A DNA stretch of 32,000 nt from an uncultured Hyphobacterium sp. (GCA_964351965.1 CAYGPM010000012.1:46827-78826); one strand, 5' to 3'. Shown: positions 3,410 through 29,045, numbered from the stretch's first letter. Made by a program: numbers and translations. Notes: a model not told the origin generated them from the sequence alone.

Positions 3410-3592
3410 GTCTATATAACTTGCTGAAATACTGTGATTTATGCTTACCTACAAATAATACAAATAAAATAAATAACACAAGTAATTGTTATGGCTTTTA
3501 AGATCAATAGAGAGACCACCATTTCCCAAAATGGGACAAACATCCTCCGGCGTCAGCAATAAAACAGGTATGCGCGTGTAATACATGGTTAG

Positions 3593-5556: not shown

Positions 5557-5892
5557 TTATTTCTTAAGATAGAATGGCACACCTACACGGTCTATATGTT
5601 CTAAAAAGTCCGGGTCGCTAATGCGATGATACACTGAGATGTCAAACTTATAGGGCAGGAGCAAATTGTCTAAATCCATTTCAATCTTGAAAAGCAGATC
5701 TAGTGTGATGTTTTCACCAATCAACGTTAAGTCTATGTCGGATGAAGGCTTATAATTGCCCATGGCCCTGGAGCCATATATCAATACCTTTTCAATGTCA
5801 TGATACCTGGAAAAGACATCTTGAATCTCTCGTTGTTCTTTTGATGTTAGACCCGTGTTCATCAGGCTAAAGCAGTTTTCCTTGCTCTCCAC
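5557..5892 (-). CDS. minimal nucleotidyltransferase (MNT) of a HEPN-MNT module
   Basis: YGSRAMGNYKPSSDIDL matches the GSxxxGxxxxxSDxDL nucleotidyltransferase motif. It overlaps the upstream HEPN gene by 26 nt. Confidence 0.85.
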   Translation of the reverse strand: MESKENCFSLMNTGLTSKEQREIQDVFSRYHDIEKVLIYGSRAMGNYKPSSDIDLTLIGENITLDLLFKIEMDLDNLLLPYKFDISVYHRISDPDFLEHIDRVGVPFYLKK

Positions 5893-6340
5893 TTCTTTTT
5901 GATTCCATTGTAGCCTGAAACTCTAGAAAAGCGGGGTAGTAGTCAGTCATGATTTTAGAATAGATTTCATTGGCCGTTGCCGAGTTATAGGTATGGCTTG
6001 TTTTATTACGGCTACCTATCATTTCCATCCATACCTGACCATCGGTGACCAACTGGAGTTGAAAAGCTTCACGTGAGGCATCTCTGCTACCTCCTATGCT
6101 ATTATTACCCTGATAGGCGGCATAGTCCTTCATAACGTTCCAGGCGAGCTCATGAGTGTATTCAAAGCGTTGAATGAGCCCTTCAATAATGATTTCATCC
6201 AAGGTATCTGTTTTTGCTTCGTTTTCATCAGGATCAAAGCGATTGATACGCATCTTGATATAGTCCACAGCTTTGGATAGTTTGTCAAGGGCTTTATTGT
6301 AATTGCTGAAACGCTGCTGCCACCGAATATCCTGTTCCAT
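5867..6340 (-). CDS. HEPN / HI0074-type nucleotidyltransferase substrate-binding protein
   Basis: Rx4H motif (RNKTSH). 157 aa. Paired with the MNT gene. Confidence 0.8.
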   Translation of the reverse strand: MEQDIRWQQRFSNYNKALDKLSKAVDYIKMRINRFDPDENEAKTDTLDEIIIEGLIQRFEYTHELAWNVMKDYAAYQGNNSIGGSRDASREAFQLQLVTDGQVWMEMIGSRNKTSHTYNSATANEIYSKIMTDYYPAFLEFQATMESKRSGEQGKLL

Positions 6341-7958: not shown

Positions 7959-8426
7959 TTATTGTTTGAACCGGGCATCAAATTTCAACGGCACTTTTGA
8001 AATGATTTTAATATGTGCAGCATCGGGGTGGTTGGGATTAATAAGATAATTGAATTCCTGAGGAATGATACAGCTTGGCACTTTCAATACCGCTGCAGAT
8101 TTGTCTTTTACAAAATCATCACCGATAAACTGGGTTTCAAGAATAGGGGGTTTTGAATCCCAGTGGTCCGGTAAGTCTTCCAATTCTAATTCAAGAATTT
8201 CAAGATCATCCGGAATGTCAATCTCAACATAATATCGATCACTTGGCAGATCTTCACTTATATCCAAGTGAACCGACACTTCCAAGGTAGCCAGAGCACG
8301 GGATTCAGCGCAGTACACCATGTGGGTGTTCAGGCTATTCCAGCGATAGCCTTCAGTTAGCGCTGCCCCAATGCCTTTTAGGGTAACATTAAGATATTTT
8401 TTTCTTTCGACCCTAAAAACGCGCAT
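7959..8426 (-). CDS. RES-domain toxin
   Basis: GYRWNS and YCAESRALATLEV supply the Arg/Glu/Ser signature. It overlaps the upstream antitoxin gene by 1 nt. Confidence 0.85.
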   Translation of the reverse strand: MRVFRVERKKYLNVTLKGIGAALTEGYRWNSLNTHMVYCAESRALATLEVSVHLDISEDLPSDRYYVEIDIPDDLEILELELEDLPDHWDSKPPILETQFIGDDFVKDKSAAVLKVPSCIIPQEFNYLINPNHPDAAHIKIISKVPLKFDARFKQ

Positions 8427-8926
8427 TAGGCCATATTTCCATATTCTAGCCTATTGAGACTGTTTTTAACCTCTTGAATCCCGGTTACCGTATCAAATAA
8501 ACTTTCCGGTTTGACTCCACCCAAGGAGATATTGGGTTTTTTTAACCACCTATGAAATTTATCGCGTTCATTATTAAAGACTTCCACGCCAAAATCCAGT
8601 AGCTCAGTCAACAGTAACACCACCTCACTTTCTCTTCCATTGAGATGGTCTTTTTCCCTTTTCTTTTTATTATACGTAGTTTGTGGGATGCCTATTATCG
8701 AGAGAAATTGTTTGACTGGAAGATCAGTTCTTTTGCTAATCACTTCAATGGACTCATAGGGCAAGCCCTCTCTTATCAAAGCCACCCGCTCCATTTTACT
8801 GGACCAAACTGCTTCTCCTTCCGAAACAGCAATGCGCCAGCCTGGTTTGGAGTTTCTTTTTGCTCTCGCTCGTTTAATGCTTTTTTTGGCATCAAGTTTC
8901 GCTGTTTTAAGTGTTGGTTTTTTCAT
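8426..8926 (-). CDS. Xre-like antitoxin with DUF2384-type C-terminal domain
   Basis: The C-terminal FHRWLKKPNISLGGVKPESLF...GIQEVKNSLNRLEYG is typical of partners of RES toxins. Confidence 0.8.
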   Translation of the reverse strand: MKKPTLKTAKLDAKKSIKRARAKRNSKPGWRIAVSEGEAVWSSKMERVALIREGLPYESIEVISKRTDLPVKQFLSIIGIPQTTYNKKKREKDHLNGRESEVVLLLTELLDFGVEVFNNERDKFHRWLKKPNISLGGVKPESLFDTVTGIQEVKNSLNRLEYGNMA

Positions 8927-14194: not shown

Positions 14195-15877
14195 CTATTG
14201 TTTAACAATTTTTCCTCGGATTATTTGCTCATCTGTGCTTAACGAATAAAAATAAAGCCCTGATGGTAATTCCGAAGTCCGCAATACGAAATTTGTGGTG
14301 CGTTCATTAAAAAGATTTTTACCTCTTTTGATACCCTGAACATCATAGAGCTCTAAAAGTACTTCTCGGTCCGGAGTTTCAGAAAACTCAATATTCAAAT
14401 AATCAGAAACTGGATTGGGATAAATCTTAACTTCCAAGTCTCTATACTCCGAAATCCCATTTGGTTCAAAGATCAGGGTTTTGTTCACCGTATCTCTGCA
14501 ACCGTACCAGTTGCTTATGATGAGTTCTACATCAATTGTATTACTGATGGCTGTATCAAAAAAGACCAGCAGGCTATCATCAGTTCCACTTGTTCCCACA
14601 CTGGTATTCCATTGCCAGGTATAGACGGTGTCAAGGTATTTTAATCCTCCGGAAGAGGTGTCTCGAAGGGTTAGGACGGGGTAGTTATATTCAAAATCAA
14701 AACCAGCCACCGGTGGTTGATAAGAGCAACGATCCGGAATCCATTCTTCACCAACACTATCTATTTTTGCAACCCAGTAGTTGGTTGAATTCAAAGTGTC
14801 GTGATAACCACTTAAAATCAAATCATCATTATCAATCCAGTAATCATAAGCGATTTTAAAATTTGAGGAAGCATTACCATAGGTTAGATTCCAAATTTCT
14901 GATAACGTGGTTTGGTCATTAATTGTAATGGCAAAACTGTTGTTTGAAGTGAGTCTATTGAATATATATGAACTATTGTTTAAAACAACGGGGCCAAAAT
15001 AAATTCCGTTTTGTTGTTGTAAAGATCCGGTAACGATAAGATTTGTGTCTAGACTTAGATATTGCCCAGTGTTTATTGTGAAATTCTGTCTGTTTAAAAG
15101 ACCAATCCCGATATTGTTCTCCGGATGCAAATTTGCATCCTGAAACACCGGGTTTCCTCCTATTGAAGGAGCTCTTATTGAGTCCAAAATGACGCCATCG
15201 AACCCTATTCGAAGTAATAAAATATTATCGTCCCTGTAATCTTCTCCAGCAACGATTAAGCTCCCATCCATCATCTCAACGATATCATGGCCTTCCTGAT
15301 CGCCCGGCATGGGATAATTCTTTTCCCACATCAAATGACCCAGACTATCAATTCGTCTTACAATCACGTCTGCCATTGTATTAGGATATTGATTCCAGCC
15401 TGTTACAACAACAGAATTATCATTTAGTATTAAAGGGCTTCTCACCGTATTAAAAAACCCAAAATATTGATACGTATTTCTCCAAAGGGTGTCTCCCTGC
15501 CCGGTGATTTTATACAAGAAGTCAAAAGTACTTCCCTGAATATAAGTACCTGTTACATAATAATTATTTTCGTTTTGTATTTTAACGATATCTCCTGAAT
15601 AGGAAATATTAACATTGGGCCTTAAAACCCTCTTTTTCCACATCAGGTTTCCACTGAAATCAACTTTAATGATTTCTGCAGTTTCCTGCATTCCTTGCGC
15701 AATATATCGCCCTGTTCCGTATATAAGGTAGCCTGAGTCCGCCTCTGCAATGGAAGTGCTATACTGATCATCTGGCAGATTGATTGAATTCTCCCAAAGC
15801 AATGCCTGTGCTAATGTGAAAATTGGGGAGCATAGAAACGCCCCCAGAATTATTAATAGTTTTATTCTAAAACTCAT
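14195..15877 (-). CDS. secreted T9SS cargo protein (repeat/propeller-like region, PKD-like segment, C-terminal sorting domain)
   Basis: Signal peptide MSFRIKLLIILGAFLCSPIFTLAQA. The C-terminus KIYPNPVSDYLNIEF...GLYFYSL...GKIVKQ matches the Por/T9SS CTD pattern. Confidence 0.8.
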   Translation of the reverse strand: MSFRIKLLIILGAFLCSPIFTLAQALLWENSINLPDDQYSTSIAEADSGYLIYGTGRYIAQGMQETAEIIKVDFSGNLMWKKRVLRPNVNISYSGDIVKIQNENNYYVTGTYIQGSTFDFLYKITGQGDTLWRNTYQYFGFFNTVRSPLILNDNSVVVTGWNQYPNTMADVIVRRIDSLGHLMWEKNYPMPGDQEGHDIVEMMDGSLIVAGEDYRDDNILLLRIGFDGVILDSIRAPSIGGNPVFQDANLHPENNIGIGLLNRQNFTINTGQYLSLDTNLIVTGSLQQQNGIYFGPVVLNNSSYIFNRLTSNNSFAITINDQTTLSEIWNLTYGNASSNFKIAYDYWIDNDDLILSGYHDTLNSTNYWVAKIDSVGEEWIPDRCSYQPPVAGFDFEYNYPVLTLRDTSSGGLKYLDTVYTWQWNTSVGTSGTDDSLLVFFDTAISNTIDVELIISNWYGCRDTVNKTLIFEPNGISEYRDLEVKIYPNPVSDYLNIEFSETPDREVLLELYDVQGIKRGKNLFNERTTNFVLRTSELPSGLYFYSLSTDEQIIRGKIVKQ

Positions 15878-18800
15878 TCAATCATTAATTTTTGTATTTC
15901 AAGAACGGTTCCATCGGCGTACATCACTTTTATTAGGTACATGCCTGATGATAACGCCGAAACATCCAATTGCGTTTCACCGCTTTCTTCCAGTTCAAAT
16001 TCAGCCATTACAATACCCATGCTGTTAAGAACCTGGCAAGATGCCAAATCCGCCTTGTCGTAGGAGCTGCTTAAAGTTACGGTGCGATCTGCTGGATTGG
16101 GGAATAATCTGATATTTCCTTTAGAAAACGACCTGCCAAAACCGCCCGCAATTCTGCTGAGTGGAAAAGGTATATCTAAAACCCTAATACACGGATAGGA
16201 TGGGGGGTTCTGGGATTGGGCAGCAACCCTGACTAATTCAGATGGATATACGGCATCCGTACCCCAATGTTTGGTAGAATCTTCTCCGAGCCATTCATTT
16301 TGATATCTCCAATAGTTCCACCCTACACCTGAGGTCTCTTCATCGGCGTTGGCATCATAGATGGAATACCAACGAATGGGTGGGTCCCAATTGAAGACAT
16401 TAGGCGCAGACCCGCCATTGGTCGAGTCCGGATACCCGTTGGTGGAATCAGCAGGCCATCCATTTCCAGCCGGAGGAAAAACAGCACCACTTCCCCCAAT
16501 ATCATCAGTAATAGCGCCCCCGGCTTCCACATAGATGCCGTATTGAAAGAAGTCGGTGTTGCTGCTTTTAACAAAATTGGTGCAATTCATACTGATGTCA
16601 GTATTTACATCTTGGGGTATATGAATGGCGATCACATTTTCCTCCATTCTACTTTCAAGCAAGCTTAAACCTGTTGATCCCTCTCTCAATTGATAGCCAT
16701 AATCCAATAGTCTGAGTCCGATTGAATCCGCACTGGTAATTGCGTTACTGCTGACACCGATTGAATGATTTAAAGGCTCTGATACAGCGAAGGAGTTACC
16801 ATCACCTGTAACTGTCACACCTTCCATTCTCAATTCCCAATTATCCATATACACCCCAAATAACTTCGTGTCCACTCCTAGAAAATCATATTCGGCTTCC
16901 TGTTGCCAATCTGCCGTAGTCCAGCTTTTCAATTCTATGGAATCATAGCCGAGAACCAATTGATCCACATTCTCAGCAGCATAGATACCGGCTACTTTTG
17001 GCCGTATAACCCATGTGAGTGCCAGGGTATCTATGTGCGCGTTTTCATTGAAATAAACTCCATAGACGTGGTCTGAAATATAGATCATTGAGTCTACACT
17101 GTAGCTGCCACTGACATCCCCATAGGTCCAGTTTTTAGGAAAAATGGAATGCACGCTATTTGAGCTTCCCTGATAAATATCGATGGCTTTATAAGAGCTG
17201 GAATAGGCCTCATTACTAGCATAATCATAGGGGAACAGCATGTCTGTTGTTTCACAACTAAACTCCCCAAAGATCACATCGGCCGAGCCTGGCAAGTCTT
17301 TTATGTTATAATAGGAGACGGAGATATAGTTATTGTGGAATTCATTATTATAACCCTGATAGATATTGGCATCATCCTGGATGGGCGCATCATTGAAATC
17401 CTGATCCGGCCGGATGCCTTTATAGCTGTCCTGCATATAGTTGCCTTCATAAATCAGAGTTGCTTCTTTGTTCAGCTGAATACCGCCCCACATGGTGTCG
17501 CACTGAGCTACAAAACTGGAAACCTGAATCCGCATTGTTACCGAATCATTCAGGTTGATATTCGGCCCTGTTGCCTCTCCTCCTTTTGTTGGAGAATCAT
17601 AATGATAGGCATCCCCCATAAAGTGAAAATCTCCCCTGAGCTCATAGTAGCGTTGTACAGCCGTATTGAGGTCTTCAACCACTAAATAATTTTGATCATA
17701 CACAAATTGTGGATCTATCTCTCCATAAAGTAGTTCCATAGATGATATGCCAGAACAACATCCCTCAGGAACAACATAAGCCCGATAATTTATGGTTGTA
17801 TCAAAACAGCCATTTCCGAGTGTAGATAATACCACCACATCATTCCACCCGGTTATGGTCAATGATAAATTATGGATGCCACTAGCGTCAAAGATAGTAC
17901 CTTGAGATATTCCATTAATAAATAATGTGTGTGTAGCGGATGATGGATAACTCGAATTGGTTATTTGAATTCCTGAATACTGACAATAGATGTCATTGGC
18001 AGTGGAAGAGGTTATTTGGATGGTATCCGTTGGTAAAGGGAGCGTGTCAATATCGACCAACAAGGTGTCTGTATAATATATACAGCCGGCAGGATTGGTA
18101 ATGATCACCCAATAATTCCCATCGCCATTAATGCTGGATAGCGTGCTTCCGGTATTGGTATTTCCATTATACACTTCAAACGTATAGTAAGGCGGGCTTT
18201 TGGGCTGATTGATTGTAGGTGAAATGACAAAAGTATTGTTTAAAGGCTCACCTGGGCAATAGGCCGTGTCCCCCGATAAAGATAATGTAAATGGCTCCTG
18301 TGCGTATGCTGATGTAATAGTAATGACGTTACTTGTATCCAAGCAGCCGGTGCTTAAATCAGTAGTAACTAAGAAGAAATCCCCAGGGTGTTTTGCTATT
18401 AACTGGTTTGTGGAGGCAAAAGGCACTTGAGAAGTGTGTCCATTATCATTGGTAAAGTTCCATTGAAAAGAATGATTCGAATAATTTGAAGAACTATCTA
18501 AGGTTAATGTCGGGAATCCAGTACTCAGCCCCCCTCCACTTGGATTGCAAATAATAGTATTTGGCCCTGTTGATGAGATGTTAGTGTTCATTCCTTTAAA
18601 GATTATGAATGTAGATTGAATCCCAATATCACAGGTATCGTTTTTATTAATAACTTCTACGTAGTACCAAAAACTAGCACTATCATATCCTGAAATTAGT
18701 AAGGTAGAGTCCAAACTAATAGGTGCATTACCATTGCTGGGATATCCCAAATACCATTTATGTTGATAATTTGTATTACCTGAAAAATTAGTTCTTAATA

Positions 18801-19899
18801 GAAACTCATTTTGGCACAATGAGTTTGGGTGGCCAGAATTTAGTGAAACAACTAAAGGATAAGGGTCAGATATGCAATCACTGACAGTAATTATCATATC
18901 TACAAAAACACTTCCAATGAGTTCTTTCGTTCCGTCATTGTCTATATCTCTATATTCTTTGATCCAAACGCCAACCGTATACAAACCCTCAGGCGTGTCT
19001 GGAATAAATGATATTTCACCAGTTACCTCATCAATATCAAAATGCTCATTCGCGTTTATTCCGGGTATTTGGACAAGGTTCGAATAACCAGGCTGCCAAC
19101 TTGTGGGACTGAATTTTGTATTAGGATCAATAAAGGGGCTTGATACTGGGGAGGTGCTTCCAGGCAATAGATTAAAACCACTTTTTGGAGCGTTCAGTGC
19201 AAAAGCCATTGAATCTCCATCGAAATCTGTAAAGTTGTTTGACAATGCCTTTGTTGTCTGATCGCAAGTTATTTCTTGTGCCAGCTGCATCGGGTTCAAG
19301 ACGAATGGAGGATTGTTGTAGTTTGTATTGTATGAAATTCCATTTTTTGCTAATACTAAACCAGACCAAGAAATGTACAGGTTAATATTATCAGTAGAGG
19401 AGCTTATGTTTTGAGTATTTTTTCTTTTAGCACCTTTAAAAGAAATGATCCAACCAGACGTGTCCTGATCTGTATAGCTTCTAGCTACAAAATAATTTAC
19501 CATTTGAAGAGGGGGTCTATTAACCGTTGTGTCACAGGGGTGGGCTGGTCTGAAATAGTTTGTGGTTAATTTCCAAATAGATTCTTTTTTTATAATTCGA
19601 TTAGAGCCATCTGCCGAAGAAAAAACAATACTCGTATCCATTTTAGCAGGAGTGGTTACCCCAGAATCCATTACTAAATGTAGGTACATATGATATCTAT
19701 CAGCTGAAACATGTCTAAAACCAATATGCCCACCATAAATGCTATCAAAGTGAATGGTTTGGCTTTCTGCTTTTCCAACTGATATTATTGTTATTATGAT
19801 GAAAAAAAATGAAATGATAAAAGTTTGTTTATACAACCAAAACAAACGTGCAAATAGACAAGTAGATAGTTTAAAAGGATTACAAGGACATGGCTCCAT
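15874..19899 (-). CDS. very large secreted T9SS cargo / surface protein
   Basis: 1341 aa with a hydrophobic N-terminus. The C-terminal RLFPNPADRTVTLSS...SGMYLIKV...KLMIE is a T9SS CTD. Its stop overlaps the next gene's start (ATGA). Confidence 0.8.
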   Translation of the reverse strand: MEPCPCNPFKLSTCLFARLFWLYKQTFIISFFFIIITIISVGKAESQTIHFDSIYGGHIGFRHVSADRYHMYLHLVMDSGVTTPAKMDTSIVFSSADGSNRIIKKESIWKLTTNYFRPAHPCDTTVNRPPLQMVNYFVARSYTDQDTSGWIISFKGAKRKNTQNISSSTDNINLYISWSGLVLAKNGISYNTNYNNPPFVLNPMQLAQEITCDQTTKALSNNFTDFDGDSMAFALNAPKSGFNLLPGSTSPVSSPFIDPNTKFSPTSWQPGYSNLVQIPGINANEHFDIDEVTGEISFIPDTPEGLYTVGVWIKEYRDIDNDGTKELIGSVFVDMIITVSDCISDPYPLVVSLNSGHPNSLCQNEFLLRTNFSGNTNYQHKWYLGYPSNGNAPISLDSTLLISGYDSASFWYYVEVINKNDTCDIGIQSTFIIFKGMNTNISSTGPNTIICNPSGGGLSTGFPTLTLDSSSNYSNHSFQWNFTNDNGHTSQVPFASTNQLIAKHPGDFFLVTTDLSTGCLDTSNVITITSAYAQEPFTLSLSGDTAYCPGEPLNNTFVISPTINQPKSPPYYTFEVYNGNTNTGSTLSSINGDGNYWVIITNPAGCIYYTDTLLVDIDTLPLPTDTIQITSSTANDIYCQYSGIQITNSSYPSSATHTLFINGISQGTIFDASGIHNLSLTITGWNDVVVLSTLGNGCFDTTINYRAYVVPEGCCSGISSMELLYGEIDPQFVYDQNYLVVEDLNTAVQRYYELRGDFHFMGDAYHYDSPTKGGEATGPNINLNDSVTMRIQVSSFVAQCDTMWGGIQLNKEATLIYEGNYMQDSYKGIRPDQDFNDAPIQDDANIYQGYNNEFHNNYISVSYYNIKDLPGSADVIFGEFSCETTDMLFPYDYASNEAYSSSYKAIDIYQGSSNSVHSIFPKNWTYGDVSGSYSVDSMIYISDHVYGVYFNENAHIDTLALTWVIRPKVAGIYAAENVDQLVLGYDSIELKSWTTADWQQEAEYDFLGVDTKLFGVYMDNWELRMEGVTVTGDGNSFAVSEPLNHSIGVSSNAITSADSIGLRLLDYGYQLREGSTGLSLLESRMEENVIAIHIPQDVNTDISMNCTNFVKSSNTDFFQYGIYVEAGGAITDDIGGSGAVFPPAGNGWPADSTNGYPDSTNGGSAPNVFNWDPPIRWYSIYDANADEETSGVGWNYWRYQNEWLGEDSTKHWGTDAVYPSELVRVAAQSQNPPSYPCIRVLDIPFPLSRIAGGFGRSFSKGNIRLFPNPADRTVTLSSSYDKADLASCQVLNSMGIVMAEFELEESGETQLDVSALSSGMYLIKVMYADGTVLEIQKLMIE

Positions 19900-20144: not shown

Positions 20145-20669
20145 TTAATTCAATTTGGAATATCTGATGATTAAATCACCGAGCCTTATTGCTCCTGACT
20201 TGATTTGATTTTCCCAGCCCTCATTGTTTAATGGGTTCTCAATTAGGTTTATTGAATGCCAAGGCAACTTTGCAATTTCCGATGTATCTGTATTTAACTG
20301 GTTGGTAAAAAATACTGCCTCGACATTATAATATCGAGCCTTGAGGTTGTTGATCATTTCGCTTATGTCGTTTATAGAGCCCCCATGCACATGCGATGAT
20401 AATACACAGACATCAGCATCTTTGAAGAAGACATCAAAATAATTTTGAATTGATTTATAGTCTCCTAGTTTTTCTTGGATGCTTCTGTTAATAGTAAAAA
20501 GTGTCTTCAATTTCCGAGGGGATTCTGGATGATTGATGTGGTGTACTAAGTTTGTGTTTAATTTATTAAATTTATCTATACCACATAAGTGAAGAATTAG
20601 GTATTTCTGAAAGGTTGTCTTTCCGGTACAGTCGTCGCCAATTAGAATGAATGCTGTCCTTTTAATCAT
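20145..20669 (-). CDS. small P-loop NTPase-like protein
   Basis: Walker A-like GDDCTGKTT at residues 11-19. 174 aa. Confidence 0.55.
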   Translation of the reverse strand: MIKRTAFILIGDDCTGKTTFQKYLILHLCGIDKFNKLNTNLVHHINHPESPRKLKTLFTINRSIQEKLGDYKSIQNYFDVFFKDADVCVLSSHVHGGSINDISEMINNLKARYYNVEAVFFTNQLNTDTSEIAKLPWHSINLIENPLNNEGWENQIKSGAIRLGDLIIRYSKLN

Positions 20670-20723
20670 AATAATAAATTTTATAGAGTAATAGAAGCGC
20701 CCTCTAAGACTCAGTCCATGTTA

Positions 20724-20975
20724 TTAGAGCAATTCAATTGCCTCTTTTAAAGATTTTTGTTGTTCATAAGTCATAGCATTGATAGACGCCCTAAACTCAC
20801 TTTCACCACCCTTGGCCTCATAAGTTCGGCAAGAATCTATTATAGAGCGAACCATTACCCATTTGTGTTCGGGCACTTCATGCTGATCCAACATGTCTAA
20901 TTCATAAACAGCATTGGCAAGCTGTTGATCAAGGTCTCCACGAATGCTAAGTTCGCTTTTAGCTTTTTCTTTCAA
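20724..20975 (-). CDS. hypothetical small protein
   Basis: 83-aa ORF whose listed start is TTG. The frame stays open upstream into the repeat at 21055-21119 without an ATG. Confidence 0.35.
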   Translation of the reverse strand: MKEKAKSELSIRGDLDQQLANAVYELDMLDQHEVPEHKWVMVRSIIDSCRTYEAKGGESEFRASINAMTYEQQKSLKEAIELL

Positions 20976-21054
20976 ATCTCTAAATCTTCTGAATGTTGGC
21001 CACGTAGCTGGTGAATTTGTTTGTTGTTTGCTTATTTTCTGTTTTCTTGTTTCA

Positions 21055-21119
21055 TCTGCTCAAACCTCTTAGCTACAGTGGTTGCCTCGACCGTTTTGCT
21101 TGCTTCAATGCAGAGAACC
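21055..21119. repeat. 65-nt repeat, copy A
   Basis: 52 of 65 positions are identical to 22472-22536, with no gaps. It abuts the stop codon of the 87-aa ORF. Confidence 0.8.
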
Positions 21120-21383
21120 TCAAACTTTAATATCAACAATTAATTTATCAAATTGATTTAATAAATCCGAATCGATTAGACCGGGTTCCATTTGCCGTCC
21201 TTCTTTAATTAGAGATTTCAGAACCTTTTTAATTTCCTTTAGTTCAGTGGGGCTTTTACGTATTAAAAAAAAGAGCTCATCGAGCAGCTGCCCAATAGCT
21301 CTGGTGTCTGCAGGATGCAAACTGTTGATCGCATAATTGAGCTTAAGTAATAGGGATTCGATTCTATCAATCATAGATTTCAT
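21120..21383 (-). CDS. hypothetical small helical protein
   Basis: 87-aa ORF, 28 nt downstream of the PD-(D/E)xK gene on the same strand. Confidence 0.45.
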   Translation of the reverse strand: MKSMIDRIESLLLKLNYAINSLHPADTRAIGQLLDELFFLIRKSPTELKEIKKVLKSLIKEGRQMEPGLIDSDLLNQFDKLIVDIKV

Positions 21384-21411
21384 CTAAATTTTACGAACCT
21401 ATTAGTCTTTA

Positions 21412-22419
21412 TTATTTGTTCCAAACCTCAAGACCAGATTCATTCATAAATTTTTCGAAAAACTCAAATGAAGAATTAAACCAGTCTAAAATATCCCTTT
21501 CTGGATCCTCTTTATTGAGTAAAGTTGATAGTTCGCGCTCCAACCAGAACGAAGTTGCATAATCCAATTTGTCCATTGTCAACTCTGCATATTTTTCTGC
21601 TATCTTGACAACGCTGTCATGGTGTTCATTTTTTTTCTCCAGATAGACACCGACATAAATCGATGAATTTTCAAAATACATTCCATATGATAATTCAGAC
21701 GAACCCTTGCCTTCAACAATATTGTTTACATAGTAAACAAATATATTTTCATTCATGATCTGGGAAGTTGATTTGCCATTACTGACTTTATTTATTTTAC
21801 AAAACTTTTGTTCAAAATTGGGCCTAGCCGAATCTAAATATTCACTACACTTATAAAGCACTTCCTGTATGTTTTCAAAGACCATGAAGTCTTTCGTGTA
21901 TAATGTTGTGTCCTTTGCCATATCGTATGTTATTAAAAATTCTAAAAAGTCCGAAACCATTGCCTCACTTTCAAATTGTGTTAAAAAATGATGCAAATCA
22001 AGCCACCTGTGCTGTTTGAAGTTGTGGCTATTAATTTCTTTTATATCAGTATACTTTGTACAATAATGAAGTGTTGCATTGAGCCCTTTTTGGCTAAAAT
22101 AATCCAAGGCCAAACTATATCGTTCCAATTGACGGTACCCCTCTGAAGAGTTCACTTTATTTTCTATGAAACAAATGTTACTGGATCCTTCAATTACCAT
22201 GTCTATGATACAATCAATATCATTATCTAAAGTGTATTTCTTTTGAGTTCTAATGCTGTAATCATCCTCTGGAAGACTTAAGAATTCAAACAGGTATTCT
22301 TTTTTTATTTCGTTGTTGCTTTCTAAAAGTCCCGCAAGAGCTTCGGTTGCAAAATCTTCTAAAGGAGTTTTTCCAGAATTTACATTTTTTGAATACAGTT
22401 CCACTAATCTTTCTAGCAT
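21412..22419 (-). CDS. PD-(D/E)xK-type nuclease-like protein
   Basis: DCIIDMVIEGSSNICFIENKV gives the D...ExK arrangement, followed by QLERY. The N-terminal EDFATEALAGLL is typical of this class. Confidence 0.55.
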   Translation of the reverse strand: MLERLVELYSKNVNSGKTPLEDFATEALAGLLESNNEIKKEYLFEFLSLPEDDYSIRTQKKYTLDNDIDCIIDMVIEGSSNICFIENKVNSSEGYRQLERYSLALDYFSQKGLNATLHYCTKYTDIKEINSHNFKQHRWLDLHHFLTQFESEAMVSDFLEFLITYDMAKDTTLYTKDFMVFENIQEVLYKCSEYLDSARPNFEQKFCKINKVSNGKSTSQIMNENIFVYYVNNIVEGKGSSELSYGMYFENSSIYVGVYLEKKNEHHDSVVKIAEKYAELTMDKLDYATSFWLERELSTLLNKEDPERDILDWFNSSFEFFEKFMNESGLEVWNK

Positions 22420-22471
22420 CTGCTATCAATAATAGATTTAATTATAACTGATAATTGCCTTTCTTTATTCT

Positions 22472-22536
22472 TCTGCTCAAAAGCTTCAGCTACAGTGGTT
22501 GCCTCAGCAGTTTTGCTTGTCTCATTTCAGAGAGCC
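22472..22536. repeat. 65-nt repeat, copy B
   Basis: See copy A. It lies 52 nt upstream (minus strand) of the PD-(D/E)xK gene start. Confidence 0.8.
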
Positions 22537-22673
22537 AATAATAATTTGTACCAGTAAAACTAATTATAGTTTATTAATGAATTCTTGCTCGACCCGGCGG
22601 AAGGGTAGCTACACAATTGGCCAGGCAATTGTCACATTCTATTTCGAGCGGCGTCATAGGGTCTAATACCAAA

Positions 22674-22749
22674 GAGCCGTATGATGGGAGACTATCACGT
22701 ACGGTTCTATGAGAGGTTTAGGGGTGAGATTCCACTTTACCTACTCGAC
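22674..22749 (+). mobile_element. group II intron 3' remnant: domain V (22674-22707) and domain VI (22711-22746)
   Basis: GAGCCGTATGATGGGAGACTATCACGTACGGTTC is a 34-nt domain V hairpin with the canonical GAGCCGUAU...ACGUACGGUUC arms. It is followed by GAGAGGT...ACCT-A-CTC, a helix with a bulged A at 22743, 6 nt before a terminal AC at 22749. No reverse transcriptase ORF and no GUGYG 5' end are present. Confidence 0.8.
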
Positions 22750-23535
22750 TTATATTCTCATTTCAGTTTCAGACATTTTTGGTTCAGGCAATTTAAGTTT
22801 ACTGCAAAGCCCTTTAATATTCTCAAATTTCCAACGCTCCATTTCTGGATGACAAATAATCTCAATCAGTTCAATAAAGTTTTTTGTAATGTTATATCTA
22901 AAGAACTCTGGATTTGAGTCGGCATTGGAGGTAGGTGTAGCTATTAGAAACCGAAATTCTTTCTCATAATCATAAGCAACATCTTTTTTAAATGAACTGT
23001 ACTTAGGAAGTGTTTTCTTTTCAAATGGGTCAAATGGATTAAGCTTTAGATATGTTATACTTCCACAAATAAATTCGTTCTTTGGGTAGAAATGCGGCTG
23101 TAGTTCAAGATTTCTCTTGAAATAGTCTATCAAGTCTCTTGCGTTAGCTTTGATGGCAACACTGTTGCGGTTTGAGTACAAGTTCCACATTGCCACTGAT
23201 TCGCGCTGGGATTTAATCCAACAATTGATAAACTGAGTTCTCTGTTTCAGCGAAGATTCCGCTTCATAATTCTTCAGAGTCTTTTTATTGTTGCTATTGT
23301 GTTTGTCTCTGATTTTTTTGTCGATAGCAGGATTAGTCATGTTAGACTTTTGGGCAAAATATCGTTCTGCTATCAACTTGTATGTCACTCCTTCAAAAGG
23401 GTCTGAGAATTTATCAGTTCTTGTAAAGTGCAATTCCTGTGTGTTAGATAGGTCAATTAGCTTGTGTAAGTCAACATATCTCCAAAGCAAGTCTCCCTCT
23501 TTAAGTTTTGATTTTGATATTTCCTTAAATCTCAC
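22750..23535 (-). CDS. DUF2971-like protein
   Basis: The N-terminal LWRYVDLHKLIDLSNTQELHFTRTDKFSDPFEG fits the DUF2971 signature (Y..l..l..il....l.fs....fnDP.E). Confidence 0.6.
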   Translation of the reverse strand: MRFKEISKSKLKEGDLLWRYVDLHKLIDLSNTQELHFTRTDKFSDPFEGVTYKLIAERYFAQKSNMTNPAIDKKIRDKHNSNNKKTLKNYEAESSLKQRTQFINCWIKSQRESVAMWNLYSNRNSVAIKANARDLIDYFKRNLELQPHFYPKNEFICGSITYLKLNPFDPFEKKTLPKYSSFKKDVAYDYEKEFRFLIATPTSNADSNPEFFRYNITKNFIELIEIICHPEMERWKFENIKGLCSKLKLPEPKMSETEMRI

Positions 23536-23885
23536 AGGTAAGTAATCATTGAAGCATTAGCAATAAGTTTGTTTTTAATCTCGTCCTCTTTACATGCCAT
23601 GATCTTGTTGTAAATAAGTTTCATAGCCTTTTTGGGAAGAGTGTACAGGTGGCCCTTGTTTATTTTAGAATATACTGCTCCGGTATATAAGTCAAGTTTT
23701 TCGGGTGCATCGACTCTGTCTGCATGGGGGTCACTTGGAAATATCGTGTCTGGGTCGTATTTGTTGATTTTCCAAATTCCGTTGTGCTTGACCACTTTTT
23801 CAAGTAGTATTTGTTGTCCATCTTGGGTAATTTCCGCAAAGTCGGGAAGTTGAAATTCAAGTAATGGTTGTGCTTTCTTGTCCAT
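23532..23885 (-). CDS. hypothetical protein
   Basis: 117 aa. Its stop overlaps the DUF2971 start by 4 nt. Confidence 0.5.
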   Translation of the reverse strand: MDKKAQPLLEFQLPDFAEITQDGQQILLEKVVKHNGIWKINKYDPDTIFPSDPHADRVDAPEKLDLYTGAVYSKINKGHLYTLPKKAMKLIYNKIMACKEDEIKNKLIANASMITYL

Positions 23886-23889
23886 GGGG

Positions 23890-24219
23890 CTAAAAGTTTA
23901 TGGTAGCTAAATACCAGTCATTTTCCATTGTGTCATAGGTGATATGACCGTCATTTAGATATGTCAGGAGCACGATATAGTCCCATTGTTGGCTGTCTGT
24001 TGTTGTCTGCATTTGCCAAAGTGCTTTAAAAATCTCTTGCTTATTGAGTAAAGGAGGGAAATTGACTGTCTGATGTCGTTCTATGAAGTCTTTGATGTCT
24101 TGGTTGTCCAAGTTCACTTGGTTAGCCTGTGCAGTAAATTCGATTGATTGTCGCTGTCGAACAATGTCTTTAATTTCTTTGTATGTTATTCCGTTTCCAA
24201 GTTGTTTTTGTGTCTGCAT
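23890..24219 (-). CDS. hypothetical protein
   Basis: 109 aa, ending 4 nt before the next start. First gene of a tight three-gene operon. Confidence 0.5.
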   Translation of the reverse strand: MQTQKQLGNGITYKEIKDIVRQRQSIEFTAQANQVNLDNQDIKDFIERHQTVNFPPLLNKQEIFKALWQMQTTTDSQQWDYIVLLTYLNDGHITYDTMENDWYLATINF

Positions 24220-24237
24220 GATTGTCTTTTTAAAATT

Positions 24238-24369
24238 GCTGCCAGCGCTCGGCTATGGCAAGTGGCAGTTTTTGAAAAACGTTTCTGTCCACCGTAACCG
24301 AACGTAATAGCAAGATAAATATTTCGTTAACACTTTCGCCCGCCATTGGCCATAGCTATTGTTGGCAGC
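24238..24369. repeat. attC-like imperfect palindrome E1
   Basis: GCTGCCAGC (24238-46), 5-nt spacer, GCTATGGC (24252-59), variable centre, GCCATAGC (24349-56), 4-nt spacer, GTTGGCAGC (24361-69). It lies 7 nt after the stop of the 698-aa gene and 18 nt before the next ATG. Confidence 0.6.
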
Positions 24370-24376
24370 TGTATTT

Positions 24377-26473
24377 TTATTCTCTTCTTTTCTTTCGTTT
24401 CTCTTTTTTTTGCTCCAGTTTCTCAATCATTCTATGATATTCATTTATAGGATAACCCTTTACGAGTTTGAAGTTTTTGTCAAATAATGGGTCAATGATT
24501 GGCACCATATCGTCACCAAAGATCATTCTCATGTAGTTGTCAAAGTCTTTATCACTTTTTATGATTTTTAATTCCACCTCATTTAATTCAATACCAAACT
24601 GAGCCCAGTTGTTAAGTAAGTCTTTGAATTGTAATGGGTCTGAAACTATTGGTACGACATTACCGAGATTAACTATTGTTTCAGTGTCTTTATCACGTAC
24701 AAGGCATAATGGAGCGTAATAAAATATATCTAAGTCAAAAACTTTGGCAATAAGTTTACTGTACTTAGTGATTTCAGCGGATTTTATTTCGAGAATTACC
24801 TCATCAGTCTTTTTAATCTTTAATAACTCTGAATAAGAAGCAGTAATTTTACTTATGGACAACACACACATTGGGTCATTCATTTCAACATGTCTTTTCT
24901 GTGTCTCCTTAAATAATTCTAGGTACTCCTCTGCTTGAAGCTTATTTACTCTTTCAATCTTACTTCTTTCATAAGCATATGATGTGGAGCCATCCTCAAG
25001 ATTAAATTTTATACAATAACTGTAGTCGTTGTCATACTCCTCCTTCGAATTCCATGATATGACAGGCGTCCTCCCATGAAAGAGTTGTGGTTTTGCTTTT
25101 AACGAATTCAACATCCCTTGGCCTTTCATGAGTAGGGTAATCCACAATTTAAAATCAAAGGATTTCAAAAAGCTCTCTATTTCTTTTCTGGGAATTTGAA
25201 CTGTTCCTAGTATCCGGTCAATTGACCTTAAACAGGTCTTATGAACATTTCCAATGGCGGCAATTGTCTCTTTATCTTCAATTTCAACTAGTAATGCGTC
25301 TGAATCGCCAATTTGTTTCCCACAGTGAAGGCATAACTCAGGACTTTTATTACTCTTCACAAGAAATTCCAGATGTTCCTTGTGTAGCTTGGCACAAGCA
25401 GACTCTTCTATTGACTCAATCTCTCCAGCTGGGATTATTGCAATTCTTTTATCCTTGTACAAATCTTGGTATTCCTCCATGTACCTATCCAGTCCAGCCA
25501 TAGTTGCAAATCTCTGCACGACTTTCCATTCATCACCATTTCCTATCTTTATCTTACTGTTGTAGAACGTATTCTTAACTTGACAATCATCCTTGAATCT
25601 ATATAACTCGACAATCATAAAATCTAATTTGTCGAAGAATGATTCAATGAGAAGAACCTCCTTTCCTACAGAAAGTTCACCTTGAGAGATAACTTCAGTT
25701 TGCAAAAAGCTAGGGGTACGATCACTCTCCTTATCATCGTCTAAATATTTGTTGAAGATGTCAGCAACTTTCTGCTTATCTATCGAGAGCCTGCGAGAAG
25801 AATAGATTAAGGAATTCTTTATTAGAACTGCCCAAATCGTCTGAGGGCGTTTAAACCCAATGCTTTTTAAAAGCATAAATGATGCAATCTCCACGGTGTG
25901 TCCAGTTTCAGCATCTATAACTCCAATAAAAATTCTTTTTGCGAATAATTTAAATATGTCGGATGAAGGTTTTAATTTAATTGCCTCCTCATATATTTTA
26001 TTAAAAACCATCTCGAACTTCTGAAGAGTATCTTTCTCAGATTCGTTCAAAGGATTTTCGTCAAATGCATCTTCATTTAATCGAATAGATAAAACAATTT
26101 TCTTTAAATCATTAGTGATTTTGCTTGAAGCATCACTTGTAGTAATTAGACCAAAATAATGTTTCGTATTTTCGTTTTTGATGAATTCCTCAACAAACTG
26201 TTTTACTGTTTTATAAAACTCACTTGTCTCTCTGGTTGAAAGAGTCAAGCTTCTTTTTATCTGTAGAAAGACTATTTTTTCATTTCTACATAATAAGTTG
26301 ATGTCGTCAATAGCTCTACCTGTTTCAAAATATATCTTTTCAATAAGGAGTTCCTCATCTATCTGATCAAAATACGCTGAGATGTCAAATTGCGTATATT
26401 GGTTAATTAAACACCAAGCAGCAATTCGTTGTTGATAATCTATTCCGGAATTTGTTGCTTGTCCTCCTGTCAT
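24377..26473 (-). CDS. DUF4297/Cap4-like nuclease-domain protein with a large uncharacterised C-terminal region
   Basis: The start is taken at the ATG at 26473 (MTGGQATNSGIDYQQR...). GG....G.DYQ followed by FETGRAIDDINLL...VFLQIKRS (E, DD, QxK) resembles the DUF4297 PD-(D/E)xK fold. There is a CxxC...HxxC pair in the middle of the protein. Confidence 0.55.
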   Translation of the reverse strand: MTGGQATNSGIDYQQRIAAWCLINQYTQFDISAYFDQIDEELLIEKIYFETGRAIDDINLLCRNEKIVFLQIKRSLTLSTRETSEFYKTVKQFVEEFIKNENTKHYFGLITTSDASSKITNDLKKIVLSIRLNEDAFDENPLNESEKDTLQKFEMVFNKIYEEAIKLKPSSDIFKLFAKRIFIGVIDAETGHTVEIASFMLLKSIGFKRPQTIWAVLIKNSLIYSSRRLSIDKQKVADIFNKYLDDDKESDRTPSFLQTEVISQGELSVGKEVLLIESFFDKLDFMIVELYRFKDDCQVKNTFYNSKIKIGNGDEWKVVQRFATMAGLDRYMEEYQDLYKDKRIAIIPAGEIESIEESACAKLHKEHLEFLVKSNKSPELCLHCGKQIGDSDALLVEIEDKETIAAIGNVHKTCLRSIDRILGTVQIPRKEIESFLKSFDFKLWITLLMKGQGMLNSLKAKPQLFHGRTPVISWNSKEEYDNDYSYCIKFNLEDGSTSYAYERSKIERVNKLQAEEYLELFKETQKRHVEMNDPMCVLSISKITASYSELLKIKKTDEVILEIKSAEITKYSKLIAKVFDLDIFYYAPLCLVRDKDTETIVNLGNVVPIVSDPLQFKDLLNNWAQFGIELNEVELKIIKSDKDFDNYMRMIFGDDMVPIIDPLFDKNFKLVKGYPINEYHRMIEKLEQKKEKRKKRRE

Positions 26474-26491
26474 TTTGAAAAATGTGTTCGT

Positions 26492-27792
26492 TAAGATACA
26501 TCCTTTACACAAGTTATAGATTAGCCTTTACACTAGATTAGTTTCTAACCTTACTGATTGTTCTTTCGTTCTTAATTCATTTTCATTAAAGTATCCTAAA
26601 AATACATTTCTATAAAACACCCGCCAAATTCCATTTCCCATCTCTAGGGCTCCTATGTATTTCCCTTGCAATGAAGCAGATACATATACCCAGTTATAGG
26701 AGCCCCATCGGACAGATCCGTTCTTGGTCACTTTTAAGACTTTCATTTCTGAGTCATAGTCAAAGTTGTTGATTCTTTCGGGAAAAGGACGCGTAGAAAA
26801 CTCATGAACAGAAGCAGGTGTTTGCATGTCCAGAGCTTCGTGGGGTCTTATGTGATTATACTCCTTTACAAATCGATTTAAACGCCTCTGTTGGGCTTTT
26901 AAATCATAAGCTGAAGGTTTGGCGCAAGCCGCCTTTAAATCTCTGTGCATTCGCTCATGTCTTCCGTTTTGTTCAGGGTGCGAAGGATCAGAATAAACAG
27001 GTATGATTCCAAGTTCAATGAACCAGTAGGAGAGCCTGGTAAAACGTTGTATGGCTTTAACAGATCCGAAAGGGCTGCCGTTGTCAGTATGGATTTGTTT
27101 AGGAATACCATACATCCTGAAAACCCTGGTAAAATCTGCTTTAGCTGAAGCCAGGTTCTCTTTGTAATGTCCTTTTGCAGTAAATACAAATCGGCTTTTT
27201 GAATCGGCAATAGTAAGTGGATGACAGTAGATTTTATTACCCATTAAAAACTTTCCTTTGTAGTCTGCACTCCAGACTTCATTGCACTGCTTCGGATCGA
27301 AAATGGGGTGAATGGGTTTGACTCTTCGCAGGCGTTTCTGAGGGCTTACCAAACCATGTTTTTTCAGGATGTTGTGTACGGTCAACATACTTGGGATCAT
27401 TTCATCTGAAAAATCGTTATACAACAGTTTGTGGATTTTTTTTGCTCCCCACAGCTTGTGTTTTTCTTTCAGTTTAAGAATGCCTTCTATCACTTTTTCA
27501 GCAGTGGTATTTGGATGAGGTCCGCGAGGTTTTCTTGAAAGTTCTCTTAGCCCTTCATAGCCTTCGTTTTCAAATCGGGTTATGATTTTATAGGCAGTAG
27601 GCCTCGATATTTCAAAACTTCTGCACAGCTCCGAGATCGTATATTGACCGGTGCGCCATTCACAGATAAACTCAATTTTTTGTTCCATTATCGTTGTTTC
27701 TTTCCAAGGCATGGCAATCTGAATTTTTCTTCAAATTGCATCTTAAAAAGTGTAAACGATGTTTCTATAACTCTGTAAAGGATGTTTGTATA
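26492..27792 (-). mobile_element. IS481-family-like insertion sequence
   Basis: Core inverted repeats are ACATCCTTTACA[CA/G]AGTTATAG at 26498-26519 and its complement at 27765-27785. The outer ends are approximate. A possible 4-bp TCGT duplication lies at 26488-91 and 27793-96. Confidence 0.7.
26528..27712 (-). CDS. DDE transposase/integrase (rve core), IS481-like
   Basis: N-terminal HTH (ISELCRSFEISRPTAYKI), plus WSADYKG, HTDNGSPF and HPEQNGRHERMHRDLK, which supply the D, D, E triad context. Confidence 0.85.
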   Translation of the reverse strand: MPWKETTIMEQKIEFICEWRTGQYTISELCRSFEISRPTAYKIITRFENEGYEGLRELSRKPRGPHPNTTAEKVIEGILKLKEKHKLWGAKKIHKLLYNDFSDEMIPSMLTVHNILKKHGLVSPQKRLRRVKPIHPIFDPKQCNEVWSADYKGKFLMGNKIYCHPLTIADSKSRFVFTAKGHYKENLASAKADFTRVFRMYGIPKQIHTDNGSPFGSVKAIQRFTRLSYWFIELGIIPVYSDPSHPEQNGRHERMHRDLKAACAKPSAYDLKAQQRRLNRFVKEYNHIRPHEALDMQTPASVHEFSTRPFPERINNFDYDSEMKVLKVTKNGSVRWGSYNWVYVSASLQGKYIGALEMGNGIWRVFYRNVFLGYFNENELRTKEQSVRLETNLV

Positions 27793-27804
27793 TCGTACCA
27801 TATT

Positions 27805-28002
27805 GCTGCCAACGTTTAGTATATGGCAAGTAGGGCAGTAGAAAGCGATAAACTTTCAGCTTTGCACTGAGCCAAAGCGTTGTATTTTGTTTTTAATTTA
27901 TTCATTTTAAAAGTCAAATCAACGATTTGGCTGTGTTGGTAAATAGTACTGAACTTTCCTAAACCATAGAACGCCCTATTTGCTATATACCGTGTTGGGG
28001 TG
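27805..28002. repeat. attC-like imperfect palindrome E2
   Basis: GCTGCCAAC (27805-13), 6-nt spacer, TATATGGCAAGTAGGGCAGT, variable centre, AACGCCCTATTTGCTATATA, 4-nt spacer, GTTGGGGTG (27994-28002). It overlaps the last codons of the NmrA-like gene. Confidence 0.6.
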
Positions 28003-28870
28003 TCGTTATTTTTTCTTTTTCTCGTTCAATAAATTCTTTTAATGTAGTTGGAGCTTTTCCTGTCAGTTTTTGATAATTGTCTGAAATTCGGGGTTCAGCT
28101 TGAAGTCGTGGTAAAAAGTGAAGTAATGTCATAACCATAGCAAACCCACCGTTTAGTCCTTCTTTTTTCTTGCGGAAATAAAAGCTGATAGGATTGATAC
28201 TATTAAACCTTATTCTTTTACCTGTAATATCGGTCATCAAATCCGCAACGTCTCCAAAACTTTTGTTTTCAGTGCCCGTGATTTCATAGGCTTGATTTTG
28301 ATAGTTTTCAAATTCTGCAATAAGTGTTGCTGTAGATTCACCAATATTCTTGACATCAATCCAGTTAAATTTCGCTTTTCCTGAAGGTAGTGTAATACTC
28401 TTTTTTGTCAAGATTTCAGGCAGCAAGGTTGTTGTCAAGTTTTGCATAAAATAGCTTGGTCGGATAAAAATGTAGTCGAACTGCAATTCTTGAACTAATC
28501 GTTCAATTTTGTTGTGAGGAATTACCTTGCTTTTTTCAGCACCCTGAACGGATAAGAAAACGACTTTGTTGATCCCATTTTCCTTTGCTAAATATAAGAG
28601 TGGTCGAAAGACTACTTCAACATCCGAAATGTGGGGTGGTCGCAATAAAAAGAGAATGTCGACTTGGTCGAATGCTTCGGAGAATGTGCTTTTATTCTCA
28701 AAATCAAATTTTCGATAATGAAGGTTAGAATAATTCTTAAAAGTCTTTTTTGCTTTGTCAATATTTCGAACAGCAGCCAAGATTTCAGTGTCAGAATTTA
28801 ACTCACTTAAATAATGGATAACTTCAAGTCCAATATTTCCTGTTGCTCCTGTTACAAGAATTCGTTTCAT
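27983..28870 (-). CDS. NmrA-like / NAD(P)H-binding SDR-family protein
   Basis: The N-terminal ILVTGATGNIGLEV is a Rossmann GxxGxxG motif. 295 aa. Confidence 0.8.
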   Translation of the reverse strand: MKRILVTGATGNIGLEVIHYLSELNSDTEILAAVRNIDKAKKTFKNYSNLHYRKFDFENKSTFSEAFDQVDILFLLRPPHISDVEVVFRPLLYLAKENGINKVVFLSVQGAEKSKVIPHNKIERLVQELQFDYIFIRPSYFMQNLTTTLLPEILTKKSITLPSGKAKFNWIDVKNIGESTATLIAEFENYQNQAYEITGTENKSFGDVADLMTDITGKRIRFNSINPISFYFRKKKEGLNGGFAMVMTLLHFLPRLQAEPRISDNYQKLTGKAPTTLKEFIEREKEKITTPQHGI

Positions 28871-28882
28871 TTCCTTTTAATG

Positions 28883-29045
28883 CACCCCAACAATTGGCTA
28901 AAGTTATTGACTTTATTTCTATTATAGTCGATCCATGATCGATTGTAAAAAACGCAAAAAATGATACCAAAAGCATATTTATTTCAAAAGACTAAAAAAG
29001 TGACTTTATCCACTTTGCGGTAACTTAAAACCATCGTTTGGTGTG
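28883..29045. repeat. attC-like imperfect palindrome E3 (more degenerate)
   Basis: CACCCCAAC (28883-91) ... GTTTGGTGTG (29036-45). The inner arms GGCTAAAGTTA / TAACTTAAAACC are partly complementary. It starts 12 nt upstream of the NmrA-like ATG. Confidence 0.45.

Follow-up and report, generated by a model that had tools for sequence, protein, structure and literature searches.

A segment at 22.7-28.9 kb of a 32,000-nucleotide stretch of DNA from an uncultured Hyphobacterium sp. (GCA_964351965.1, CAYGPM010000012.1:46827-78826), hereafter called the window, is best explained as the remnant of a Bacteroidota integron-like cassette array which has no recombinase of its own and is of the rAID type (recombinase-associated acquired interbacterial defence). 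The probability of this explanation is estimated at about 0.8. It had been proposed from the sequence, in what is here called the original prediction, that positions 24238-29045 hold a gene cassette array lacking an integrase, with three attC-like sites, E1, E2 and E3. Two of these, E1 and E2, were found to be homologous to hairpin-forming sites which separate the cassettes of a large array on a Persicobacter plasmid and which are also present in metagenomes. The sites and the predicted cassettes of the window are as follows.

E1, 24238-24369, plus strand: attC-like site of cassette 2, GCTGCCAGC-GCTC-GGCTATGGCAAGTGGC...GCCATTGGCCATAGC-TATT-GTTGGCAGC
E2, 27805-28002, plus strand (orientation of the putative recombining, or bottom, strand): attC-like site, GCTGCCAAC-GTTTAG-TATATGGCAAGTAGGGC...GCCCTATTTGCTATATA-CCGT-GTTGGGGTG
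Head junction, 28883-28906, minus strand: the meaningful part of E3, box CACCCCAAC with an attI-like arm and no partner arm
Cassette 1, 27813-28890, minus strand: predicted cassette of a gene for an NmrA-like NAD(P)-binding oxidoreductase and the attC-like site E2, with edges at AA|C of both boxes
Cassette 2, 24246-27812, minus strand: predicted cassette of a gene for a 698-aa protein, delimited by the boundary rule given below
Cargo gene of cassette 2, 24377-26473, minus strand: 698 aa, identified with PADLOC

Sites in the window

E1 and E2 are co-oriented, lie 3.4 kb apart and have the R''/L''/L'/R' layout of boxes. The outer boxes are GCTGCCAGC (24238-46) and GTTGGCAGC (24361-69) in E1 and GCTGCCAAC (27805-13) and GTTGGGGTG (27994-28002) in E2, which shares 20 nt with the end of the NmrA open reading frame (ORF). 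The left box of E3 is CACCCCAAC (28883-91). As originally stated, the AAC or GTT triplet is kept in five of the six boxes. When the plus strand of E2 was folded as single-stranded DNA (ssDNA), both the outer and the inner stems formed, at -34.6 kcal/mol (z = -6.0), and the outer and inner stems also formed in E1. The inner stem is 17 bp long in E2 and 9+6 bp in E1, instead of the roughly 8 bp that had been predicted. E2 looks intact.

The claim that all three elements share one architecture thus holds, in fold and in boxes, for E1 and E2. E3 had no significant fold (z about -1) and no match to the half-site hidden Markov models (HMMs) of the site family, and it does not sit at the 3' end of an ORF as had been supposed; no ORF ends beside it, and the nearest real gene ends at 29826. 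The NmrA cassette starts with the box CACCCCAAC of E3 (top strand G|TTGGGGTG), and the head of the array reads TTTAGCC-AATT-GTTGGGGTG on the top strand. No family was matched at E1, E2 or E3 in an Rfam scan (E up to 10).

The boxes GTTGGCAGC/GCTGCCAAC and GTTGGGGTG/CACCCCAAC are exact 9/9 complements, each pair across a single gene, and the two boxes of E2 itself share only the CCAAC/GTTGG core; both observations had been made in the original prediction and were confirmed. These two pairs are the sole perfect 9-nt complements of this type in the window. With 25 NNNNCCAAC and 23 GTTGGNNNN sites window-wide, approximately 2.2 perfect 9-nt pairs are expected and 2 were seen, so the count alone is not significant. 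The significance is that both pairs are position-defined partners flanking single cassettes, with a chance of 1/256 each beyond the core. The same cross-cassette rule was found in related arrays: all 13 short gaps of the Persicobacter array match at 5/6 or better, a Flammeovirga array gives 9/9 three times, and the rule also holds in arrays of Pontibacter, Rufibacter and Parabacteroides. An unbiased test, on the longest reverse-complement k-mer of successive intergenic regions, was too noisy to be of use. Generic scans for AAC-spacer-stem...stem-spacer-GTT (stems of 9 or 12 bp) gave matches, E2 apart, as frequently as in shuffled sequence.

Site family and cassette boundaries in relatives

In megablast searches only the interior of E2 had matches, in plasmid pPP2 of Persicobacter psychrovividus and in a plasmid of Flammeovirga kamogawensis. 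Plasmid pPP2 (NZ_AP025294.1) has at ~302.5-404.6 kb an array of about 100 kb, comparable in size to a Vibrio superintegron, which consists of small co-oriented genes, several of them repeated (L001, L003, L005, L006). It includes at least 44 copies of an element of ~195 nt with the layout of E2, and other subtypes of 130-200 nt. E2 is ~94 % identical to two of the pPP2 copies, and E1 is ~77 % identical to the pPP2 site of the WP710 type, internal motif included. Half-site HMMs, built without E1 and E2, matched E2 at 1.6e-6 and 1.1e-6 and E1 at 1.9 (left) and 0.019 (right), and gave no further match in the window, E3 included.

The 19-mer of the E2 inner box, TATATGGCAAGTAGGGCAG, is found exactly in more than 120 metagenome contigs, mostly with marine-type names (metagenomic counts, here and below, are among the matches listed). 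The metagenomic elements are usually ~195 nt long, and their outer boxes are hypervariable, with 104 distinct left boxes in 123 elements. The flanking genes lie on the opposite strand from the site in 62/64 and 50/57 cases, and in contigs with several copies all copies have the same orientation. Two short-read assemblies of the same plasmid as the window (L015 and L016) end inside E2, at window positions 27883 and 27974, an indication that several copies of E2-type repeats are present in those samples.

The boundaries of the cassettes can be read from pPP2, in which ten genes or gene pairs are duplicated with different neighbours. On the stop-codon side the identity of the duplicates ends exactly before AAC, and on the start side just after xxxxxxAACGG(T). 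A cassette therefore consists, on the site strand, of C + site + gene + box-AA, which is the form of a classical integron cassette, and the crossover falls within the conserved AAC(GG). A crossover there accounts for the hybrid pattern of the boxes, and would be the reason why every cassette starts with a sequence complementary to the box by its own stop codon. The crossover at G|TT that had been predicted is borne out by these duplicates, and the positions 27813-28890 and 24246-27812 given above for the window cassettes are predicted with the same rule.

Hairpin covariation and strand preference

The pairing of the stems was assessed in an alignment of 17 elements (A2) with 21 proposed pairs. 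In this alignment 91.6 % of the cells were paired, compared with 73 % in column shuffles and 30-47 % with slid partners, and 64 cells had double changes, compared with 21.5 expected. The pPP2 array alone holds many different, unrelated stem sequences under presumably one recombinase, which argues for recognition of shape rather than sequence.

G·T pairs occupy two fixed positions of the stem in 14 of the 17 elements, and in all 83 metagenomic E2-type copies these positions are G·T, never G-C. The coding strand would have A·C mismatches here, and the wobbles arise solely on the strand complementary to the genes. This strand also folds better, in 17 of 20 elements and by a mean of 1.95 kcal/mol (Wilcoxon p = 3e-4, for sequences that are related to each other). 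The source of this strand bias is the two G·T pairs. Conserved extrahelical or bulged bases, which the original prediction had proposed to look for along with the stems, were absent: the 17-bp stem aligns without them in the 17 elements.

A semi-conserved internal motif (approximately GAAGCACTTTCCTGTCCACCGAAACC) is present after the inner stem, in columns ~47-80 of the alignment and, for example, at window positions 27839-27866 and 24270-24300. It is common to E1, E2 and the Persicobacter, Flammeovirga and Chondrinema sites, and may form a second structure or serve as a binding site. The centres of the elements had been described as dissimilar between copies; this needs qualification, as the centre of E2 is ~94 % identical to the Persicobacter copies and the members of the family share the internal motif.

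Recombinase in related arrays

The gene at the head of the pPP2 array, in the orientation of the cassettes, encodes a tyrosine recombinase of 379 amino acids, which is missing from the gene table because the gene crosses the origin of the record. With 226 bits the protein clears the cutoff (220) of the NCBIfam XerA/"integron integrase" model, and it is below the cutoff of the integron-integrase model TIGR02249 (198 bits, in two pieces, cutoff 265). It is nearer to XerA structures (PDB 5hxy, 1.4e-45) than to IntI4 (PDB 2a3v, 1.1e-31, in two stretches), has an extra N-terminal region of ~100 amino acids and is without the IntI-specific insertion. Full-length homologues lie directly upstream of co-oriented arrays which have sites of the E1/E2 family, in Persicobacter sp. 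JZB09 (L012), a 15-kb Chondrinema plasmid (L013), Pontibacter (L023), Rufibacter (L024), Parabacteroides (L025), a Chryseobacterium metagenome-assembled genome (L008) and the metagenome contigs L050, L116 and L141. Two contigs with weaker recombinase matches have a divergent arrangement, and a single-protein query with the recombinase in reference genomes gave few relatives.

Before the first cassette, the stretch that follows the recombinase has at its end a short palindrome or an ATATA-like arm, 4 nt and GTT. The head arm of the window, TTTAGCC-AATT, resembles these attI-like sites 3' of the recombinases, in a comparison with the post-recombinase stretches of L012, L024, L013, L050, L116 and pPP2. 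In L116 (~4290-4330) and L050 (~3525-3560) a perfect short palindrome (e.g. GGATATAGTGCAC-TAG-GTGCACTATATCC) is followed by 4 nt and GTTG, and the attI-like site may itself be hairpin-capable.

Other mobile elements are present in the related arrays. On the Chondrinema plasmid an intact group II intron with a reverse transcriptase separates a GNAT gene from a site of the E2 family; its insertion point is GT|T on the bottom strand, 14 nt past the stop codon. Transposase genes of the IS110 family lie inside the arrays of Pontibacter (L023, 11868-13223) and Rufibacter (L024, 15953-17011), and another is found elsewhere on the Chondrinema plasmid (L013, 247-1239). IS1111-attC elements target classical attC sites, and the IS110-family genes in these arrays recall them.

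Proposed mechanism and alternative explanations

A cassette of this family is a promoterless gene followed by an imperfect palindrome of 130-200 nt. On the strand complementary to the gene the palindrome is made up of xxxxxxAAC, a spacer of 4-6 nt, a stem of 15-17 bp, a variable centre, the partner of the stem, a spacer of 3-4 nt and GTTxxxxxx. By analogy with integrons, this strand would fold, and the hairpin would mimic a two-arm core site of a recombinase, with an outer R box, an inner L box and an unpaired bubble between them. A tyrosine recombinase acting in trans would cleave within AAC and swap one strand with a second site, and the exchange would be resolved by replication, as it is in integrons.

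Several observations weigh against the interpretation of the region as the remnant of such an array. No tyrosine recombinase or remnant of one was found in the window with tblastn, as the original prediction had stated, and none was found in a further 10 kb upstream in public contigs. For the window's own cassettes no cassette-level variation was seen among the public copies, which are all identical and from one run series, and these cassettes are putatively mobile by comparison with pPP2. The block of three genes after E1 breaks the box rule. E3 is a half-site only, box CACCCCAAC with an attI-like arm and no hairpin. In E1 the triplet on the cleavage side is AGC instead of AAC and the spacer on that side is 2 nt shorter than in the relatives, so E1 is probably inactive on this side. 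Finally, single-strand recombination is proposed by analogy, for a recombinase without the IntI domain which reads extrahelical bases. The array looks partly decayed, with an insertion sequence (IS), the change of AAC to AGC in E1, an intron fragment at an expected site and a half-site as its head.

In the original prediction the region was assigned to the clusters of attC sites lacking integron integrases (CALIN). On this reading it would be the remnant of a classical integron, whose ordinary attC sites would be served in trans by a canonical IntI from elsewhere in the host. The R''/spacer/L''...L'/spacer/R' layout, the AAC/GTT triplets and the G|TT boundaries are indeed those of integrons, and the group II introns have the mode of insertion known from classical attC sites. 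Each array head examined, however, has a XerA-like recombinase which is co-oriented with the cassettes and not divergent, and which has no IntI insertion and falls short of the integrase model (198 compared with 265 bits, two pieces). The stems have no conserved extrahelical bases, and with IntegronFinder 2.0 next to no classical integrons were reported in Bacteroidetes (PMC9024848). Membership of the E1/E2 array in the IntI-type integrons is not supported, and a CALIN is considered distinctly unlikely. A somewhat different possibility, which is unlikely too, is that the sites belong to the family described here but are exchanged as conventional duplex DNA by a Xer-type reaction at box, spacer and inner box, the palindrome serving termination or the binding of an accessory protein. 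This would suit an enzyme which is closest to XerA (PDB 5hxy, 1.4e-45) and has no IntI-specific domain, the near-invariance of the E2-type inner boxes (69/83 identical among the copies listed), as for a protein-binding site, and the resemblance of the attI-like sites at array heads to duplex sites. It would not suit the many unrelated stems which, in one array with one recombinase, still pair through compensatory changes, nor the invariant G·T pairs on one strand only, which is the strand that folds better, nor the occurrence in the arrays of hairpin-targeting group II introns and IS110-family elements.

Miniature inverted-repeat transposable elements (MITEs), repeats resembling repetitive extragenic palindromes (REP) or transcription terminators, all without a role in gene mobility, are very improbable, although the many copies with conserved interiors and the position at the 3' ends of genes could be expected of them. 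No target-site duplications are present, and the flanks are inverted complements across genes and not direct repeats around the elements. The orientation to the genes is fixed (62/64 and 50/57), duplicated cassettes break at AAC, and the generic hairpin scan of the window was at noise level except for E2. A T-run is lacking, and it is in the antisense strand, not in the mRNA, that the wobble pairs form. The breakpoints at AAC, the fixed orientation and the lack of target-site duplications were taken to rule out the terminator and MITE alternatives named in the original prediction.

The rAID-type remnant remains the preferred explanation of the window. A wider proposal, put forward tentatively and with odds judged slightly short of even, is that the Bacteroidota have a phylum-wide second lineage of integrons, which would comprise the 100-kb Persicobacter 'superintegron', small plasmid versions and the rAID clusters of the gut. 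In this lineage a XerA-like recombinase without the IntI insertion would act on folded ssDNA sites, read via the two G·T wobbles, and hairpin-site recombination would have been invented independently or the lineage would be an early branch of it.

Cargo, insertions and plasmid context

The other features of the array region are as follows.

IS481-family insertion sequence, ~26480-27804 (ends approximate), minus strand: Pfam rve, rve_3 and HTH_32, transposase ORF 26528-27712
Three tightly packed genes 3' of E1, 22750-24219, minus strand: 109, 117 and 261 aa, identified with Pfam and PADLOC
3' end of a group II intron, domains V-VI, 22672-22749, plus strand: Rfam Intron_gpII, 63.7 bits, E = 1.7e-10

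The ORF of cassette 1 (27983-28870) matches the Pfam family NmrA (8.9e-22). The N-terminal 240 amino acids of the 698-aa protein of cassette 2 match PDC-M54A (1.5e-26) and, weakly, the Lamassu effector LmuA (7.8e-5) in PADLOC, and no Pfam or NCBIfam family matched this protein. The last of the three genes after E1, that of 261 aa, encodes a DUF2971 protein which matches the candidate defence family PDC-S31, and a PDDEXK_4/PDC-S26 protein is also among the cargo. The PDC-M54A/LmuA-like, PDC-S31 and PDC-S26 genes are candidate defence genes on the strength of these matches, in line with the defence-type cargo of the original prediction. The three-gene arrangement is identical in all public contigs and may be a multi-gene cassette which has lost its attC site.

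The IS481-family element has the terminal inverted repeats ACATCCTTTACA and interrupts cassette 2 in the stretch that separates the start codon of the 698-aa gene from the E2 box. The intron fragment runs antisense to the cassettes and directly adjoins the stop codon of the 261-aa gene, which is where introns that target attC sites insert. No match to domains I-IV was found, and the intron of the window is therefore 5'-truncated; as the fragment lies where a site is expected, a third site has probably been lost there. The fragment is not similar in sequence to the intron of the Chondrinema plasmid.

A 77-nt direct repeat with 79 % identity is found just 3' of an 87-aa gene (21043-21119) and beside the intron fragment (22460-22536). 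On the minus strand the copies encode the similar peptides EASKTVEATTVAKRFEQMKQE and ETSKTAEATTVAEAFEQKNKE, and the repeat may be the remnant of a small gene. It was considered as a fourth type of site and rejected, as it lacks both a conserved hairpin and the AAC/GTT layout and is absent from every other locus examined.

The backbone is that of a plasmid from a Bacteroidota host, as had been predicted, with a Rep3 initiator, ParA, a MobA relaxase and proteins with sorting domains of the type IX secretion system (T9SS). All genes in 20145-28870 are on the minus strand, and the G+C content of this region is 0.35, compared with 0.37-0.40 in the flanks. A metal-efflux operon sits upstream of E3, and two large secreted proteins of 560 and 1341 aa, the former with a T9SS C-terminal sorting domain, are encoded in the region adjoining the array (14195-19899). 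The backbone also has two toxin-antitoxin pairs, a nucleotidyltransferase-substrate-binding/HepT-like protein with a small partner (5557-6340) and a RES protein with a Xre-type antitoxin (7959-8926). A megablast search of plasmids gave no match for the backbone of the window. Look-ups of exact proteins led only to identical public contigs, all of one sample series, whose breaks fall at the IS, E2 and the intron.

Comparison with known systems

The architecture of an array headed by a recombinase has already been published as rAID-1 of Bacteroidales, described as 'reminiscent of integrons' (Ross et al. 2019, bioRxiv 10.1101/471110; also PMC12247911). The definition of rAID-1 comprises a XerD-like recombinase at the 5' end, with an identity of at least 44 % to BF9343_RS08045, followed by at least two co-directional genes with a G+C content of at most 41 %, conserved intergenic repeat motifs and orphan immunity genes as cargo (bioRxiv 10.1101/471110). 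The rAID-1 texts examined treat the repeats as motifs, and hairpins, strand asymmetry and the point of crossover are not analysed in them. In the papers searched no account was found of the site grammar, AAC breakpoints, covariation, invariant G·T wobbles, marine and plasmid spread or 100-kb Persicobacter array. For the rAID or integron-like arrays of Bacteroidota the site grammar is now concrete, with a point of crossover and a preferred strand, and their known range widens from gut Bacteroidales to Cytophagales, Flavobacteriales, plasmids and mostly marine-named metagenome contigs. Such arrays can hold candidate anti-phage genes besides type VI secretion system (T6SS) immunity genes, and surveys and tools for cassettes which are based on IntI might undercount or miss them. 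If the single-strand mechanism is true for a recombinase without the IntI-specific domain, it would bear on the evolution of integron recombination from Xer recombinases.

With rAID-1 the arrays related to the window share a co-oriented XerA/XerD-like recombinase at their head. The Parabacteroides plasmid cluster (L025) carries T6SS immunity genes and a recombinase which is 39 % identical over its full length to that of pPP2, and its intergenic sites obey the cross-cassette box rule in the form xxTAAC/ATTAxx. The genes at 20145-28870 are co-directional, with a G+C content of 0.35, which is within the 41 % of rAID-1. Unlike rAID-1, the window and the 10 kb upstream in public contigs have no recombinase, the host type is Cytophagales-like and the context a plasmid, and the cargo consists of candidate anti-phage and oxidoreductase genes instead of orphan or T6SS immunity genes. 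The sites of the window are 130-200 nt long, whereas those of rAID-1 are ~45-60 nt; the L025 sites are shorter and of the ATTA/TAAC form.

The resemblance to classical integrons lies in the site grammar (R''/L''/L'/R', AAC/GTT), the boundary at G|TT and the start of each cassette with the complement of its own inverse core. Near-identical sites within large arrays are also found in, for example, the Vibrio superintegron with its Vibrio cholerae repeats (VCR), and the favoured strand is likewise the one complementary to the genes. As in a CALIN, at least two co-oriented attC-like sites lie within ~4 kb, one of them, E1, with AGC on one side. The differences are that the recombinase of the relatives is without the IntI insertion, has the additional N-terminal region of ~100 aa and is co-oriented with the cassettes, that two conserved G·T wobbles take the place of extrahelical bases, and that the inner stem of the window-type sites is 15-17 bp long. 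Classical integrons have group IIC-attC introns inserted in antisense between the gene of a cassette and its site (PMC3001079), and the arrays described here are like them in this respect too. The window fragment is antisense and abuts a stop codon, and the intron of the Chondrinema plasmid has its insertion point at GT|T on the bottom strand; the window copy differs from group IIC-attC introns in that domains V-VI only are left, the 5' part and the attC site being missing.

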